DNA from: Octopus sinensis
Taxonomy: Eukaryota
Direction of reading: 5' to 3'
Assembly: GCF_006345805.1 (NCBI RefSeq)
Contig: NC_042997.1
Span: 76,198,001 to 76,262,000 of the forward strand
DNA length: 64,000 nt
In this document: positions 29,808-40,692 of the stretch, one piece after another
How positions within the stretch are numbered: position 1 is the stretch's first letter
How the letters are laid out: the number at the start of each line of letters is the position of its first letter
Translations under genes and position numbers: made by a program
The notes under the pieces: generated by a model
Told to the model about the DNA's origin: nothing
Database searches by the model: none
Seen by the model: the letters and a program-made list of their open reading frames with translations, nothing else

Positions 29808-32330
29808 TCATCATCATCATTTAATGTCCGTTTTCCGCGCTAGCATGGGTTGGACGGTTCGACCGGGGTCTGGGAAGCCAGGGGCTGCACCAGGCTCCAG
29901 TCTGATCTGGCAGTGTTTCTACAGCTGGATGCCCTTCCTAATGCCAACCACTCAGCGAGTGTAGTGGGTGCTTTTTACGTGCCACCTGCACAGGTGCCAG
30001 AGGGGTCTGGCATCGGCCACGATCGGTTGGTGTTTTTATGTGCCACCGGCACAGGAGCCAGTCGAGGCGGGGTTGGCATCGGCCACGTTCGGATGGTGCT
30101 TTTTATGTGCCACCGGCACAGAAGCCAGTCGAGGCAGCACTGGCAACGGCCACGTTCGGATGGTGCTTTTTACGTGCCACCTGCACAGGTGCCAGAGGGG
30201 TCTGGCATCGGCCACGATTGGTTGGTGCTTTTTACGTGCCACCGGCACAGAAGCCAGTCGAGGCGGGGCTGGCATCGGCCACGTTTGGATGGTGCTTTTT
30301 ATGTGCCACCGGCACAGAAGCCATTCGAGGCGGGGTTGGCATCGGTCACGTTCGGATGGTGCTTTTTATGTGCCACCGGCACAGAAGCCAGTCGAGGCAA
30401 CACTGGCAACGGCCACGTTCGGATGGTGCTTTTTATGTGCCACTGGCACAGGTATCACTACTACTATTTCCATTGATATTTGTTTCGATGTTCATGTACA
30501 TGCACTGGACTCAACAGGTCTCCTCAAGCACAGCGAGATGTTCCGGGATCCAAGGTACTTTGAATGGGCAGGGGCTATGCGGAACTGGTGCCGGAAGCAT
30601 CCCGGGTCTTAGTAGTCACAACATATCTCCAGAGATCTCGGTCCTTCGCCATTGCCTCAGTGAGGCCCAACGCTCTGAGGTTATGCTTGACTACCTCATC
30701 CCATGTCTTCCTGGGTCTACCTCTCCCCCTGATACCTTCAACTGTTCGGGAGTGGCACTTCTTCACACATCTCTCCTCATCCATCCGCAGTACATGACCA
30801 TACCATCGCAAGCGTCGCTCTTGCACACCGCATCTGATGCTTCTTATGCCTAGCATTTCTCTCAGGGTGCTTACACTCTGTCGTGCATTCACACTGACAT
30901 TACACATCCAGCGGATCATGCTAGCTTCATTTCTTTCAAGTCTACGCATGTCCTCTGCAGTCACGGCCCATGTTTCACTGTCGTGAAGCATGGCAGTTCG
31001 CACACATGCATCATACAATCTACCTTTCACTCTGAGTGAGAGACCCTTTGTCGCCAGTAGGGGTAGGAGCTTTGTAAACTTTGCCCAGGCTATTCGTATT
31101 CTAGTGGTGACACTCTCTGAGCATCCACCCCCACTACTAACTTGGTCACCCAGGTAGCGGAAACTATCAACTACTTCTAGTTTCTTCCCCTGGAGTGTGA
31201 TGGAATCTGTTTTCTGAGTATTTGTGGTGTCTATTGTCCCTGTGCATCTGCCGCACATGAAAGCTATCTTATCAGTTAATTTCCCTTTGATGTTGCTGCA
31301 CCTCTTATGCGTCCATAGCTTACACTGGGTGCATCTTATGGAGTTTCTACCTACACCTTTCCTACAGCTCGAGCAGGGCCACCTGCCTGATGGGGTGTGT
31401 GCTGAGTTCGCCTTTCTGCTTACTATAACTTTGGTCTTCGCTACATTTACTCTAAGGCCCTTTGATTCTAACCCTTGTTTCCACACCCGAAATTTCTTTT
31501 TTAGTTCCGGTAGTGATTCTGCTATGAGGGCCAGGTCATCAGCATAGAGGAGCTCCCAGGGGAAACCTGTTTTGAATTCCTCTGTTATTTCCTGGAGGAC
31601 TATGATGAATAAAAGAGGACTGAGGGCTGAGCCTTGGTGTACACCTACTTCTACCCGGAATTCTTCACTATATTCGTTGCCAATCCTAACCTTGCTGACA
31701 ACCTCTCTGTATAGAGCCTGTACAGCCCTTATTAGCCATTCGTCAATCTCCAGTTTCCGCATCGACCACCAGATAAGGTATTGGGGAACCCTGTCAAAGG
31801 CTTTCTCCAAGTCCACAAAAGCTATGTAGAGGGGTTTATCTTTAGCTAGGTACTTCTCCTGCAGTTGTTGGACCAGGAATATAGCATCAGTGGTGCTTCT
31901 AGCACAAAACCGAACTGCATCTCATCTAAGCAAATTCTCTCCTTAATGAGATGGGTTATGACCCTCTCTGTGACCTTCATCACCTGATCCAACGGTTTAA
32001 TACCCCTGTAGTTATTTCTATCTAGAGCATCACCCTTACCCTTGTAGCAGTTGACTATGGTGCTGCTACGCCAGTCATTGGGTATGATTCCATTATGAAC
32101 TACCTGGTTAACAATACGGGTGACTAGGCCATAGCCCACATAACCAGCTGTTTTAAGCATCTCAGCAGTGATACCTGATGGGCCGGGGGCTTTACCTGGT
32201 TTCATACCCTTAATTGCCTTAACTACAAGGGAACTGTCTATTTGGATAGCTGGTCCCTCTACTGGGTCAATATTTGGCAGGCTCTCCTCCTCCCATTCAT
32301 TCTCCACATTCAGCAGTCTTTCATAAGGCT
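29808..32330 (-). mobile_element. 5'-truncated RTE LINE (diverged subfamily) with expanded 3'UTR array
   Basis: ORFs 31846-32337 and 30575-31816 encode RT with YADD and a PHD-like finger; (ATG)n tail. Confidence 0.92.
29968..30450. repeat. Eight-unit tandem array of 62-67 bp in the RTE 3'UTR
   Basis: GTGCTTTTTAYGTGCCACCKGCAC starts at about 29968, 30030, 30096, 30163, 30225, 30292, 30359 and 30425. Confidence 0.9.
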
Positions 32331-33269
32331 TATACATATATATACATATCTTCCTCTGCTGCTACCCCATTCTCATTCCTTGAATTTCTTCCTTGTCTCT
32401 TCTTGGCTTCATCTATAACCAGGATGATTCTGCTCTAACTTATGACTTGGCTATGCTAGCAACATATCCCTTCTCTTTTCTCCCTCTTCTCCTTACTTCC
32501 ACATATCTTCCTCTGCTGCTACCCCAGCCTTATATCGCAAATTCCTCCCTGCGTCTTCCTGGCTTCATCTATAACCAGCTCCTACCATCTTATAATTTCA
32601 AAATCTGCCCCTCTATTCCCTCTTTCCCTATCTCAACAGTCCACTTCCTCTGCTACCCCACCCCCATTTTGTACTTCATTCATTGTCTCATCCTTTAGTT
32701 TTCTATAGCCTCAATTTTCCTTGATCAATTAAAGGTCTTCGTATACCACTAACAGCATTTCCTTTCAGAATACTAACCTATTTCATCCCTTCCCTCCATC
32801 CTCGGACTCACCACTTTTACTTTTATTCAATTATCCTCCACCCCCAGATTACTTAACTCACCATCATATTTCTTATCTCTTCTTGCTCTTTATCTACTTC
32901 AACACTCCCCCTCCTTAAGTTGCCTGCATCCTCCCTCTACTTGCCTTTTACTCCTCTCTTCCTCTTCTCCCATTCAACCTTTAAATCTCTTGCACTATGA
33001 TGTGAACTGATATCTGCCAATTTCCCGCCTGACCAAGGAAGCTGATATTACAGTAGTCTCTGTGCACCCATCTACTGGTTGCATATCCATGGCATTTTGC
33101 ACATTTCATCTGCTAATTATGAAGATTACAACTATTATGTAATTCCAAACTCCCAGAAAAAGCTGTTGAATTAAAATACGATGCATTCCTTTATTTAGTT
33201 TTCTGTACTTTTTATACTCCATATAAAAATGAATTTATTTGTCAATATATTGCCAGTTTTATGTAAATG

Positions 33270-33500
33270 GCGCTTGTAAAATCGTAGCTGTGGCTATCGC
33301 TAGTGTCATGTAAATAGCATCCATGCTGGTAGCACATAAAAACACCCATTACACTCTTGGAGTGGTTGGCATTAAGAAGAGCATCCAGCCATAGAAACCA
33401 TGCCAAATCAGAGTGGAACCTGGCGCAGATCTCTGGCTTACCAGTTCCAGACAAACCATCAAACCCATCCCAGCGTGGAAACTGGACTTTAAATGGAATA
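33270..33500 (+). mobile_element. RTE 3' tail fragment
   Basis: GTTGGCATTAAGAAGAGCATCCAGCC..CCATCCCAGCGTGGAAA matches the 3' end of the RTE copies. Confidence 0.7.
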
Positions 33501-33555
33501 AACATCTTGTACATATGAATTTACCTTCTGAATATATTTAGTGTTTTTTTATCTA

Positions 33556-33613
<58 letters not shown>

Positions 33614-33743
33614 ATATATATATATATATATATACAAAAATTCAGGGTGAATACTTGATAACTGTAAGCACCTGTATATGCCAGTTAGTGGTGTAGGTGA
33701 TAGGGTATATTTATCAAAAGAAAAACAGGATGCAAAGGATTTA

Positions 33744-33830
33744 GCGGTACATATGTTTCTGGCTTTATTGGATAGTTTATATCAATGCATAATTGATGTA
33801 ACATGTATGTCAATAGCCTTCTTCAGCCGC
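33744..33830 (-). ncRNA. Type-I hammerhead ribozyme with extended stem II
   Basis: GCGG-CTGAAGA-AGGCTATTG...CAATAAAGCCA-GAAA-CATATG-TA-CCGC. Stem I is GCGG/CCGC, stem III is the palindrome ACATATGT, the triplet is GUA, and there is an inner hairpin ATCAAT/ATTGAT. Confidence 0.7.
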
Positions 33831-34370
33831 GCACAATTACCACACCAAAGACATGTATTACTTGGAGTGGAAGGGGGTGAATCTTTAATGAGTTTGGGAT
33901 CACAGAGTAAAAATATAAAAAAAGTAAAAATGTAAAGAAAGAGTAAAAATGTAGAAAAATCAGTGTATAAGTATATAAAGATACAAAGGATGTCATATGT
34001 CTGGTCTGAAGTTCTAGAGCTGTATTGTGACAGTGTAGATGTGGAAAATAACATGGAAATATAAATAAATAAAGATAAAGAGGTGAAAAAATAAAGACGA
34101 AAAATAAAAATATAAAGGGATAAAAAAATAAAAAGGTGGACATAAAGATAAAGTAAGGTACAGAAAAAAATATATGCCGGTTAGTGAAGCTTTAGGATGT
34201 ATTGGTGGGTGTCATAAATTAAAACTTAATTATCTGGGGAGCTGTATGAGAGCAGGCGGATGGTCAGTTTAAGTTGTCTGCTCCAAGTTGGTGTGTGTCT
34301 AAAAGTTTATCTGCTTTCTCATAAAAACCGGCTGGGACCATATTATTATCAGTCAACATATATATATATA

Positions 34371-35036
34371 TTGTTATCGCCATATTAATATGGCATTCTT
34401 ATAGATATAAGAATAATCGCTGCCATGGTCAGCTCCATGAGGCCACCGCCATCAAGATAGCTATTGATACACGATCTGTATCCATTATAACCTTCGAACA
34501 AGGGAGGTCAGCCGCTTCACACTGCCAATCCGACAGCTACAGATGCATTTCGGGGTATTGCCCCTTGTCAATGTAGCGCAGTCGGACCCGCAGGTGTCGC
34601 CACTGACGTCTCTGTTCGAAGGCTTATATTTACCTAGTTTCAGTGGAATACATCCACTTGTTTTCAATAATAGAAATATTAAAATTACTAAGTCTCTATA
34701 AAAGAGATTACGGCAACGTTTACTGGAAATTAATTGTTATCGCCATATTAATATGGCATTCTTATAGATATAAGAATAATCGCTGCCATGGTCAGCTCCA
34801 TGTAGCTGTCAGACTGGCAGTGTGAAGCGGCTGACCTCCCTTGTTCGAAGGTTATAATGGATACAGATCGTGTATCAATAGCTATCTTGATGGGGGTGGT
34901 CTCATGGAGCTGACCATGGCAGCGATTATTCTTATATCTATAAGAATGCCATATTAGTATGGCGATAACAATTAATTTCCAGTAAACGTTGCCGTAATCT
35001 CTTTTATAGAGACTTAGTAATTTTAATATTTCTATT
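34371..35036. mobile_element. Retrozyme-like 363-bp hammerhead-bearing repeat: 1.2 monomers (minus) joined head-to-head to a partial plus copy
   Basis: TTGTTATCGCCATATTAATATGGC occurs at 34371 and 34734 (period 363). 34801-35036 is an inverted copy. Both outer ends abut (TA)n. Confidence 0.75.
34536..34577 (-). ncRNA. Type-I hammerhead ribozyme motif (core mutated)
   Basis: GCTACA-TTGACAA-GGGG(CAATA)CCCC-GAAA-TGCA-TC^TGTAGC. 6-bp stem I, 4-bp stem II, palindromic ATGCAT stem III; the core is two transitions from CTGACGA. Confidence 0.7.
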
Positions 35037-35044
35037 ATATATAT

Positions 35045-35091
<47 letters not shown>

Positions 35092-36228
35092 CATACATGT
35101 ACACGCCCACGCACACACATATGCATGCATATATATATATACACACGCACACATATATATACATACATATACACCCGTATAAAGGTGCCGGCACGGATAC
35201 ACATATACATACATACCGCTACGCACAGATACCCAAACCCACACATAACTAAATACATATATACATACACATATCTATACATCTACACACGTATCCGTAT
35301 ACATATAAATACATACACACACATACATATATACGTGCCCGCATATAAACATACTCATATACGTACATACATATATATCTCAATATACACACACATACAC
35401 AAAAGCATATAGGTACGCATATACACACATGGAAAGAAGTGCATGCAGCTAGGTACAAGAACCCACGCACATACGTATATATGCACACACACGTGCATAC
35501 ACACATACATAAGTAAGCAAATCTCTATGCATATACACACATATGCGTATATGCATATATACATGTACACTCACACAAACACCCCCCAAAAAATATATAC
35601 TCGCACACATAGATACACCCACAGACATGTATATAGACATATGCGTACACATACATACACCTATACATACATATACATATATATATATATATATATATAA
35701 TACATATATATATATACATGTACACATATACGTATATATACCCATCCTTACACCCATATATACACATACACACACACATATATATATATGTGTACATATG
35801 CATACATATACATATGCATAAGCACATGTGTACACATATACAATGAAACCCATACATAAACAAACACATGCATACATCGACATGTATGCGTCCATAGAGG
35901 TTCATTCAAGTTCATGTGCACACACACCCGTTTATATATGCATATATACACACGTCCTCACGCGTGCATAAGTACACATAAATACATATATACAAACACA
36001 CCCAGATTCAAGAACATAGACATATGTACATATATCCCCACATGCACAGAAACAGGTATACCCATTCCCATGTCTACACACGTGCATATGTATCCTTATG
36101 CACTCGGACAAAGGGGTACTAGAAATGCGTATATGAGGATTTGCATCCCTAACGTAACTCGTCTTTTTCCCAAACTTCTCCTCAAACCTGCTATAATATA
36201 ATACATGTCTTTGGTGTGGTAATTGTGC

Positions 36229-36315
36229 ATGGCTGAAGAAGGCTATTGACATACATGTTACATCAATTATGCATTGATATAAACTGTCCAATAAAACCAG
36301 AAACATATGTACCGC
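36229..36315 (+). ncRNA. Type-I hammerhead motif, second copy of the 33744 family
   Basis: ATGG-CTGAAGA-AGGCT...AAACCA-GAAA-CATATG-TA-CCGC; stems I and II are slightly decayed. Confidence 0.6.
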
Positions 36316-36493
36316 TAAATCCTTTGCATTCTGTTTTTCTTTTGATAAATATATCTATATATATATATAAAAAGTTACTTGGAGAAAAGAAACGAAACGA
36401 CGCGAGGGCACTCAGTCATACAATAATTTAATAAATAAAATATATTGCATACATACATATATGTACGTACCTACATCTACATGTATATATACA

Positions 36494-36549
<56 letters not shown>

Positions 36550-38599: not shown

Positions 38600-39150
38600 C
38601 ACCACATACTATTGTATTCAAGTGAAAGGTTGGCCAAGAAGACATAGTAATATGCATTGAATATGCTTTTGAAAGCAATCAGCAGGGTATTGGTCTGTTT
38701 CCCCAATGTAAAAGATACTGCAAAGTTTGCATATGATGCAACATACAAGGTTATATGATGCGCAACAGAAGTTCTGAGTAACATGATGTATTTTTTTAGG
38801 CCTAGTGATGGCAGTAGTATTGTTAATGCAGGGGCAAGTATTGCATTGTAGGCAAACATATTTAAAGTACCTGGTTGTGTGGGGCTGGACATTCTGGAGC
38901 TTCTTACTAGAATTCTGAGGTTCTTATTTTTTAAAGGCAAGGAGGTGGTGTAGGAAAGTAGGGGTCAGAAACTAGAATACGAAAGTTGTTGATGAGTTTA
39001 ACTTTCAATGGATGGAAGGTAAGAGCAAAGGGAATATAGTCTGTACAAGTGCATAAGGATAGTAGGTGAGTGGTAGTGCATTTGACGCCTGTGTCCAGTG
39101 GTGTTCTGAGTCCAAAACTAAGTGAGTATATCCTTAATTTAGGAAGAATT
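38600..39150 (-). mobile_element. Penelope-like GIY-YIG fragment
   Basis: The minus strand reads QNFCCASYNLVCCIICKLCSIFYIGETDQ..FQKH, preceded by C..C.C. Confidence 0.7.
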
Positions 39151-39599: not shown

Positions 39600-40692
39600 T
39601 TCACCTCTTAGACATTTATGGAACGTTTTCCGTTAAGGACATTTTACATTCAGGGGAACAGAAAAAAGTTGCAAGTAGCAAGATCAGGCAAATAGGAAAG
39701 GTAGGTAAGCAAGGTCAGGCCATTTTTGGTAAAAACTGTCTCAAACTCTAGACGGTGTGCGCAGGTGCATTGTCATGATGAAACCACCACTTTCCACTTA
39801 GCCACAAGTTGAGGTATTTTCATCTCACTGTCCCACAAACGCTTCAGAACTGCCAGGTAAAATGACTGGTTAGCAGTTTGATCAGGAGGAATAAATTTTG
39901 CGGACAATTCCTTTTGCATCGATGAAAGAAATCAGCAGCATCTTGACATTGGACTTCACTTGACGTACTTTTGGGGACGTGGTGACATTGACTGCTTCCA
40001 CTGATTTGATTGCTGCTTCGTTTCCAGGTCGTAGCCGTAACACCAGCTTTTGTTACCTGTGATGACCTTCAGAAAAAGATTTGGATCAACTTCCAACTGT
40101 TCTTTCATTTCACAACATGCATTCAGTCATGACTGCTTTTCATTTTCCATGAGCAAACGAGGCACAATTTTGCTGCAACTCTTTTCATTCACAATTCCTT
40201 GCTCAAACCTCACTGGCAGGACCTCTAGGACACACTAATCTTATCAACAAATTCGTCGATTGTTCACTGACGATCCTTAAAGATCAGTTCACTAATTTTT
40301 GTGATGTTTTCATCCTGAACAAGGTTGGTCTTCAAGTGACAAGTGACCATTTCTTAAGAGTCAAACCCACTTGTAAACTTGTGCTTTGCTCATGGCAGCA
40401 TCTCTATGAGCAGTTTGAAGCATAACTGTTTCAGTCGCTGTTTTCCCCAGCTGAAAACAGTATTTCATGGAAGCATGCTGTTCCTTCATTTCAGCCATCA
40501 CAAAAATCAACAAACAGGGAGAAGCACTGCAAATCAAAGATGTACCACATGGCAGTGCAACTCCACTCAACAATGATAGCTGGCAGATTGATGCCTGAGA
40601 GTCACATCAAGTGGCTTATAGCAGCAGAAACCTGAACTACAACAGGCTTGTCCCACAGAGAATGTTTCCAGTTGCTTTTAAGTACCCCCTCA
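39600..40692 (-). mobile_element. Degenerate mariner transposon
   Basis: KYCFQLGKTATET..MSKAQVYKW (HTH) and VITGNKSWCYGYD..ETKQQS; TIR-like TA|TGAGGGGGTACTTAAAAG. Confidence 0.8.

Follow-up and report, generated by a model that had tools for sequence, protein, structure and literature searches.

The window analysed here, a 64,000-nucleotide (nt) stretch of the Octopus sinensis genome (contig NC_042997.1, positions 76,198,001 to 76,262,000 of the forward strand; coordinates without a locus prefix refer to this window), contains a short composite insertion built from a non-coding, highly self-paired unit of 363 nt with a predicted type I hammerhead ribozyme on its minus strand. One full unit, ascribed to subfamily A, lies at 34370-34732 on the minus strand, and unit positions are counted along the hammerhead strand, +1 being the first base 3' of the predicted cut (window position 34541, minus strand). 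The insertion is made of two arms arranged head to head. Arm I (34370-34802, minus strand) spans 433 nt, or 1.19 units, running from +103 to +363 and then from +1 to +172, where its 3' end lies at priming site I; arm II (34801-35038, plus strand) spans 238 nt, from +1 to +238, beginning (5') with the base directly behind the predicted cut and ending (3') at priming site II. At the head-to-head junction the arms overlap by a 2-nt TG microhomology (34801-34802), and the 66 nt between priming sites I and II (34973-35038, plus strand) form a "tail" present at a single outer end only. A repeat finder returns the same architecture as a 70-nt direct repeat (34370-34439 and 34733-34802, 100% identical, spacing 363) and two inverted pairs, namely 34370-34541 versus 34801-34972 (172 nt, 97% identity) and 34667-34802 versus 34903-35038 (136 nt, 99% identity). 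Target (TA)n tracts abut the outer ends at 34358-34369 on the left and 35036-35095 on the right, and the insertion as a whole occupies a TA tract flanked on either side by the inverted arms of another family, termed N (33637-34358 and about 36120-36353). An earlier note on this DNA had described 1.2 copies of a non-coding 363-nt unit, an inverted copy whose start coincides with the hammerhead cut that it predicted, joined by a TG overlap of 2 nt, and (TA)n at both outer ends; these coordinates hold, the inverted start is reproduced by alignment, and the arm limits are refined to those just given (about 35038 for the end of the plus arm).

The unit was followed through the host genome (2.72 Gb) by a DNA search and by exact-match patterns, and it exists there in over a thousand copies: a 27-mer of it has 3,101 exact matches, and the DNA search gave 2,110 candidates, the best 40 of which were scored. 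Subfamily A, to which the window copy belongs (363 nt), and subfamily B (362 nt) are identical at 315 positions, and copies of each diverge by about 1-2% from their own majority sequence, whilst an older, colinear family C is represented by 2,208 candidates. The proposal of a non-coding, tandem, hammerhead-bearing family of the retrozyme type is borne out, with arms of up to 9.8 units and no open reading frame (ORF) between units. Judged by its sequence, the window unit is a member of a high-copy family of non-LTR (long terminal repeat) retrozymes, a known kind of element, with self-cleavage predicted. It matches the sequence criteria in Cervera and de la Peña 2020 (PMC7229834), in which metazoan non-LTR retrozymes have units of 350-390 nt in mussels and of 330/350 nt in the axolotl. 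What is common to both is a short non-coding tandem unit, one type I hammerhead, a stem III that is short and palindromic, strong self-pairing, dispersed copies numbering in the thousands and coexisting Penelope-like elements (PLEs). In contrast with those retrozymes, a U3-A8 core is the consensus here, cleavage and circles are predictions, and most copies are short head-to-head inversions with two fixed 3' ends instead of plain tandem arrays, an integration signature that the available part of PMC7229834 does not describe for retrozymes. No paper on this family was found in a search of mostly open literature; Repbase, Dfam or the supplements of papers may list it. Among the records that contain the stretch, none was listed as RNA; in runs guessed to be RNA the family occurs as contigs, one of which spans the unit junction and fits tandem and circle alike, and contigs of this sort cannot show ends, strand or circles. 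Family C itself (loci L294-L323) has tandem units of about 350 nt with a CUGANAA or UUGANAA core. Together with two further relatives (L230:2137-2468 and L236:923-1246) it shares the site II end motif, which points to a wider retrozyme clan in the genome.

The predicted hammerhead occupies 34536-34577 of the minus strand and reads, in order, GCTACA of stem I (34577-34572), the core TTGACAA (34571-34565), stem II (GGGG/CCCC), GAAA, TGCA of the short palindromic stem III, TC, the cut between 34542 and 34541, and TGTAGC, every element lying where the earlier note had placed it. In the family, stem III is the palindrome ACGCGU with a GUC triplet, decayed to AUGCAU/AUC in the window copy, whose TGCA-TC is a CpG-decayed version of the family CGCG-TC. 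The consensus core is UUGACAA in subfamily A and UUGAAAA in B, with U3-A8 taking the place of C3-G8 and position 7 varying freely, and the motif UUGANAA...GAAA-CGCG-UC, in which the 3-8 pair is U-A and not C-G, is present in 113 of the 122 motifs collected. Retention of TTGACAA in the consensus had previously been regarded as an objection to a hammerhead; the core is retained indeed, and the objection loses its force in view of the U3-A8 covariation, such a core having also been reported in Schistosoma PLE hammerheads (PMC4209133). Among 17 natural copies of subfamilies A and B and family C, which are related rows, both-sided compensatory changes affect 16 of 30 named pairs, including four of six in stem I and the stem III palindrome (ACCGGU in family C), and none of 500 shuffles matches this; six of the family C rows are unpaired at the first position of stem II, and four combine C3 with A8. 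This suggests that stems I and III covary across the three subfamilies. The window unit folds far better than its shuffles, at -141.3 kcal/mol (z -8.0, with none of 100 shuffles as good); circular folds reach z -9.1 for subfamily A and z -6.8 for subfamily B.

When the copies are considered by their outer ends, the 3' ends across 212 loci cluster at site I (+165-182) and site II (+229-243), and head-to-head pairs combine one end of each kind. There are 103 distinct pairs, 87 of them with both ends classifiable, and all 87 are I+II; the same holds for 24 of 24 pairs in a position-ordered subset consisting of the first 100 of the 3,101 27-mer matches. Later loci added 29 I+II pairs by hand count plus three exceptions, which brings the total to 116 of 119. 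(TA)n tracts lie on both flanks of 60 of the 103 pairs, on one flank of 31 and on neither flank of 12, and target duplications of 9-14 bp were recognized by eye in five of six non-TA pairs, with a further one of 13 bp at an array on C3. Both arms belong to the same subfamily in 99 of 103 pairs and have 98 of 110 lineage markers in common; of 246 rare variants 20 are shared and most are confined to one arm, as would befit changes acquired after insertion. Microhomology overlaps of 2-6 nt are found at 62 of the 103 head-to-head junctions.

Two fixed 3' ends, a one-sided tail, inverted copies, (TA)n targets and duplications of about 10 bp are marks of Penelope-type integration, in agreement with the earlier suggestion that Penelope machinery is used. 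Head-to-head inverted copies, one-sided tails and 8-10 bp duplications are given as PLE marks in PMC8557442 and PMC3846280, and the anole PLE protein, a predicted dimer, nicks and extends both strands, with two internal reverse transcriptase (RT) start sites defining the tail (PMC11167929). From the pairing rule we infer a programmed form of twin priming, in which one RT/endonuclease (EN) subunit would serve each start site on one template. We read the window, with a probability of about 0.72, as holding a retrozyme insertion with a predicted type I hammerhead that was likely copied into (TA)n by a borrowed Penelope-type RT/EN, which would have primed both nicked strands on one uncut RNA, probably a circle, at two fixed sites.

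The course of events would be as follows. Transcripts of tandem copies would be cleaved in dimeric form by way of the palindromic stem III, and ligation would turn them into 363-nt circles. New copies end at site I (about +170-178) or site II (about +231-240), mostly in (TA)n and with duplications of 9-14 bp at non-TA targets; an RT/EN dimer may nick both strands there, each subunit starting at one site, which would yield an inversion with one arm of each kind. The arms mostly read through the cut site and share haplotype markers. The two complementary DNAs (cDNAs) would finally stop, often at stable stems, and be joined head to head through 2-6 nt of microhomology. The start at +1 in the window is most probably one such stop that used the TG match, with a smaller chance of it being a ribozyme-cut end.

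Several observations nevertheless weigh against this reading. One end was unclassifiable in 16 of the 103 pairs, and the three exceptions to the pairing are II+II at L090 and L333 and I+I at L343. With the anole PLE in vitro, the start site was no different between the strands and hammerhead cleavage was not needed (PMC11167929). An Rfam search of 33000-36500 gave no hammerhead family among 77 matches at E<=5, only microRNA hits driven by microsatellites, so that the ribozyme call rests on motif and covariation: the fold elements named earlier are in place and the expected family match is not. The covariation comes from essentially three related subfamilies, and relatedness alone can beat shuffles. 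As to the source of the machinery, no autonomous PLE with a homologous pseudo-LTR (pLTR) was found in 51 PLE-protein loci or by a GIY-YIG protein search in which the best 150 of 6,980 candidates were scored, and a young Neptune-type family has 3' repeats that end in (TA)n and carry a different minimal hammerhead without homology to the unit.

Under a different explanation of the inversions, proposed for rotifer Penelopes (PMC3846280), a single cDNA would fold back and prime itself, or priming would take place on an antisense template, and the endonuclease would cut the tail. The containment of one arm in the other in 45 of 87 pairs would agree with it, as would perfect-palindrome junctions at a few loci (L174, L332, L334). 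However, neither arm is contained in the other in the remaining 42 pairs, the window included, and ten pairs have non-overlapping arms, so that fold-back on the first cDNA did not give rise to the second arm; most junctions, moreover, are asymmetric with short microhomology. Fold-back is thus ruled out as a general route, largely by the non-nested pairs, and we hold this explanation to be very improbable.

Programmed twin priming, in turn, has counterparts in other retroelements. In the L1 twin priming said to have been described by Ostertag and Kazazian in 2001, both target strands prime cDNA on one RNA, and the inverted insertion is joined by microhomology. The retrozyme would resemble it in all of this and would differ from it in that both priming sites are internal and fixed, and in that the cDNAs often overlap and pass several units. 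With PLEs (PMC11167929; Neptune and Naiad, PMC8557442; Adineta Penelopes, PMC3846280) it shares AT-rich or (TA)n targets, two internal RT starts giving a tail at one end, head-to-head inverted copies, duplications of about 10 bp, microhomology junctions and a hammerhead. Unlike PLEs, the retrozyme unit lacks an ORF, and its tail measures about 63-66 nt compared with 30-40 nt; its start sites are AT-rich and could pair with the target, whereas PAc of Anolis (Poseidon) starts in a non-homologous AC-rich stem loop (PMC11167929). The one-of-each pairing is quantified here, whereas the PLE papers, as far as their available text goes, call the tail optional or "often at one end". No paper on twin priming in Penelope was found in a search of mostly open literature.

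As regards the template, arms reach 9.8 units at L324, and units differ by 5.6 changes within arrays versus 13.5 between arrays. At locus L160, which represents one I+II insertion, a private 9-nt deletion is common to the two arms and a deletion that removes the ribozyme core is common to three units; L174 (C3:168.485 Mb) has four tandem units with a TC duplication exactly at the cut. Neither the L160 deletion nor the L174 duplication recurs at another locus among the 97 rows of one cut-site pattern search. Both variants would suit rolling-circle copying of one molecule, and a circular template is favoured, if only with modest confidence. Falling as it does at the cleavage/ligation site, the TC duplication of L174 could be the ligation scar of one circle.

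A less probable reading is that genomic arrays supplied the template, mainly as a linear multimeric transcript that stayed uncleaved, with a hammerhead that is weak or idle in vivo and long arrays that grow further at the DNA level. The array at L324 shows a higher-order repeat (units 4=8 and 5=9) and a variant in only some of its units, which points less to a single circle than to duplication at the DNA level or to a template of mixed multimers, and the tandem ribozyme-dead units of L160 tell against a circle as well, since a ribozyme-dead unit cannot have circularised itself by self-cleavage. The U3-A8 core and the 2-bp stem III would suggest low monomer activity; only one of nine Xenopus retrozyme dimers was cleaved in vitro (10.64898/2026.07.22.740005), and RNA that had not been processed was the main substrate of the anole PLE (PMC11167929). 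On the other hand, the 97 rows mentioned above contain no donor array with either of the two variants. Arrays are typically short, with a mean stop distance of about 315 nt in the position-ordered sample, and copies descended from linear transcripts would be expected to become ever shorter if no circle restored the length. In addition, compensatory change keeps stems I and III, which argues for selection on cleavage.

The start of arm II at +1 had earlier been taken as a genomic record of in vivo cleavage, one cDNA having run through the cut on a circular or multimeric template and the other having stopped at the ribozyme-made 5' end. The first half of this holds; the second is not established, there being no single-base peak at +1 and stronger stops elsewhere. 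Junctions near the cut were gathered with four genome-wide patterns and tallied by hand from the rows, the efficiency corrections between patterns being rough estimates. For pattern 1, 100 of 117 rows were listed and about 24 left out as intact or duplicated; for pattern 2, 34 of 34, with 10 left out; for pattern 3, 97 of 97, with about 23 intact or internal-deletion rows and 14 boundary rows left out; and for pattern 4, 100 of 199, with 28 clear and 5 doubtful junctions retained. Among the matches listed, the leftmost junction position is +1 in at least 12 cases (one more being doubtful), +2 in at least 5, +3 in at least 15 and +7 in at least 12, so that 5' ends form no single-base peak at TGTAGC (+1), where one had been anticipated, and +3 and +7 equal or exceed +1. 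An exact intact cut site, meaning read-through, occurs at 1,455 places, and the 71 arms of the position-ordered sample make 51 passes as far as +21, of which 46 continue past -7 and 5 stop between +21 and -6. The stop rate at +1 to +21 in that sample is 1.5 times the mean (5 events, 3.3 expected, P=0.23), compared with 5.6 times at +37 to +53 and 2.8 times at +199 to +213, two windows picked after seeing the data. The former of these hotspots lies at the entry of the long basal stem; the latter is located in a hairpin that separates the two start sites, and a protein may have left its footprint there.

That arm II stopped at the hammerhead-made 5' end of a linear RNA, the junction thereby recording cleavage in vivo, is consequently doubtful, even though a number of observations favour it. 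In subfamily B, at least 57 junctions fall at +1 to +12 and at least 14 at -6 to -1, where a microhomology-aware null expects 33% upstream (P=0.012); the availability of microhomology alone does not account for the excess 3' of the cut. The density at +1 to +12 is about three times that at -19 to -7 or +22 to +31 (hand tallies, rough efficiency correction), at +1 itself subfamily B shows at least 8 junctions where about 3 would be expected locally, some solo arms begin precisely at +1 (L134, L339), and both arms stop at +2 to +10 in L102, L337 and L338. Besides the counts at +3 and +7 and the modest stop rate near the cut, it must be set against these that identical partner ends (+103, +150) are found joined now to +1 and now to +7, two positions that each begin with TG (L001, L012, L008, L090), and that the excess falls in a GC-rich stem, where RT pausing would look alike. 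What is left is a broad two- to threefold excess 3' of the cut, which makes the cleavage record a weak one; a minority of cleaved templates with some end loss is possible as its source, and so is RT pausing in the GC-rich stem. The exact start of the plus arm at +1 is real, yet taken alone it is little beyond chance for this family.

A further explanation, which the earlier note had raised against its own proposal, is that the unit is only the pLTR of a protein-coding Penelope element, left behind by 5' truncation. The genome does hold Neptune-type PLEs with RT motifs, a CxxC motif and GIY-YIG, in open frames of up to 675 aa. Pfam returned nothing for three ORFs of the window or for the Neptune-type ORF of L275, an ORF that we take to be a PLE by its motifs; the description of the CxxC motif in PMC8557442 supports this label. 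The unit shows every PLE integration mark, in two places, L293 and L280, the older family C lies against Neptune ORF remnants, one of these contacts being head to head, and Xenopus retrozymes are sisters of pLTRs according to a 2026 preprint that derives animal retrozymes from PLEs by co-occurrence and pLTR similarity (10.64898/2026.07.22.740005). Nonetheless, as many as 9.8 units follow one another in head-to-tail order without an intervening ORF, arms longer than one unit run into more units and never into an ORF, and in the loci read no A or B unit is flanked in register by a PLE ORF. Nor did tblastn with a Neptune ORF against non-PLE loci match more than a few nearby fragments, and the Neptune pLTRs seen are not homologous to the unit. 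It is therefore highly improbable that the unit is a mere pLTR, and we retain the reading as a retrozyme copied by borrowed machinery. Chimeric junctions of solo A or B arms with PLE ORFs were not seen in the loci examined, and the position of family C beside Neptune remnants is no more than a hint at a partner. At L293:6727-7900, a family C arm stands head to head with a 5'-truncated Neptune-type PLE, possibly as one insertion from two RNAs. In the young Neptune-type family, the 3' ends of L274, L275, L278 and L285 carry a minimal hammerhead-like motif with a CCGACGA core (C at position 4) and end in (TA)n.

The neighbouring family N is an unrelated, non-autonomous family of Penelope type. 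Its arm at 33637-34358 (minus strand), which the retrozyme adjoins or lies inside, contains an RT-thumb-like remnant and a hammerhead-like motif of its own with a long stem II loop, and its inverted arm at 36199-36353 (plus strand) falls about 70 nt short of where the other arm ends, which repeats the two-end pattern of the retrozyme. Family N is a high-copy family (1,968 candidates), and the same pattern, with two fixed ends about 70 nt apart, is seen in its match listing. The CA-rich tract between the insertion and the inverted arm (35095-36120) resembles the upstream part of family N. A decayed Neptune-type GIY-YIG remnant with a CxxC motif upstream lies at 38618-38923 (minus strand).

Subfamily B, for its part, is the target of a long interspersed nuclear element (LINE). 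The copy at L090:3148-8509 (C1:12.343-12.349 Mb) measures 5,362 bp and encodes a zinc-knuckle ORF1 and an APE-RT-zf-RVT ORF2, its best solved relative being human L1 ORF2p; by domain content it is a putative L1/Tx1-type LINE. Of its 33 exact 5' ends in the genome, 30 were fetched and all 30 are at the target: 28 follow position 317 of subfamily B, and two follow another LINE copy plus the 17-bp target duplication. At the 3' side, 35 of 36 ends are in register with the target and one is off target, and all 30 in-register ends fetched continue into it. The orientation is always that of the hammerhead strand, with a 17-bp duplication, and copies are nearly always full length, although L426 has a 69-nt truncated copy with its own junction. 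The hosts comprise several haplotypes, which the LINE tree, poorly resolved as it is (6 of 31 branches starred), does not follow. More than one LINE copy is held by six loci, and LINE-LINE tandems occur at two. One inverted I+II insertion at C3:72.50-72.53 Mb (L375-L377, L432), 29 kb long and accompanied by a duplication of 13 bp, carries a full-length LINE in all five of its full target sites, which could reflect local re-insertion or copying of a composite unit. Copying as a passenger by the PLE is unlikely as the main route of the LINE, given that no inversion junction was seen inside it, that two apparent truncations are assembly gaps and that distances do not follow the host haplotype. 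Subfamily A, which is that of the window, differs at the LINE target and is not among the hosts. The LINE 3' end lies 62 nt upstream of the next predicted cut; R2 has its RNA released by host co-transcription and a ribozyme, and by analogy this LINE may use the ribozyme of its host as R2 uses co-transcription. Tx1-clade LINEs are known to target another transposon (Tx1 into Tx1D) and U2 small nuclear RNA genes (Keno; PMC4494074), and the octopus element resembles Tx1, Keno and R2 in 28S ribosomal DNA in entering a multicopy RNA-coding repeat at one base, in fixed orientation and with a target duplication; it differs from them in that its target is a hammerhead retrozyme. In a search of mostly open literature no paper was found on a LINE that targets retrozymes, nor any that pairs "retrozyme" with "Tx1".

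What is new here is that two start sites are paired almost without exception on a single template, and that a LINE is specific for the retrozyme. For the inverted ends and one-sided tail of PLEs, the explanations in print extend from self-priming in antisense (PMC3846280) to resolution by the endonuclease (PMC8557442), and experiments in vitro go no further than two start sites (PMC11167929); a young 363-nt family adds a rule that can be counted, namely a single template with one arm for each start site, and offers PLE integration a minimal RNA as substrate. Retrozymes are hereby tied to the PLE machinery by their integration signature, a link that previously consisted of co-occurrence and pLTR similarity, and a retrozyme-homing LINE would be a new target class for sequence-specific retrotransposons. 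Quite tentatively, one might picture an RT/EN dimer that grips a single hammerhead RNA circle between its two start sites and copies it in rolling-circle fashion from both nicked strands, which would explain all Penelope inverted pLTRs and tails; the site-specific LINE would use host transcription and the ribozyme much like R2, and a small share of copies, perhaps that of the window, would stop at the cut end.

Elsewhere in the window, a GC-rich 67-bp tandem repeat is present in 6.8 copies at 30000-30451, followed at 30575-32361 (minus strand) by the remnant of a LINE ORF2 with RT motifs in frames of 448 aa and 171 aa. Finally, a short frame at 40361-40606 (minus strand) is presumably similar to the N-terminus of a mariner transposase.
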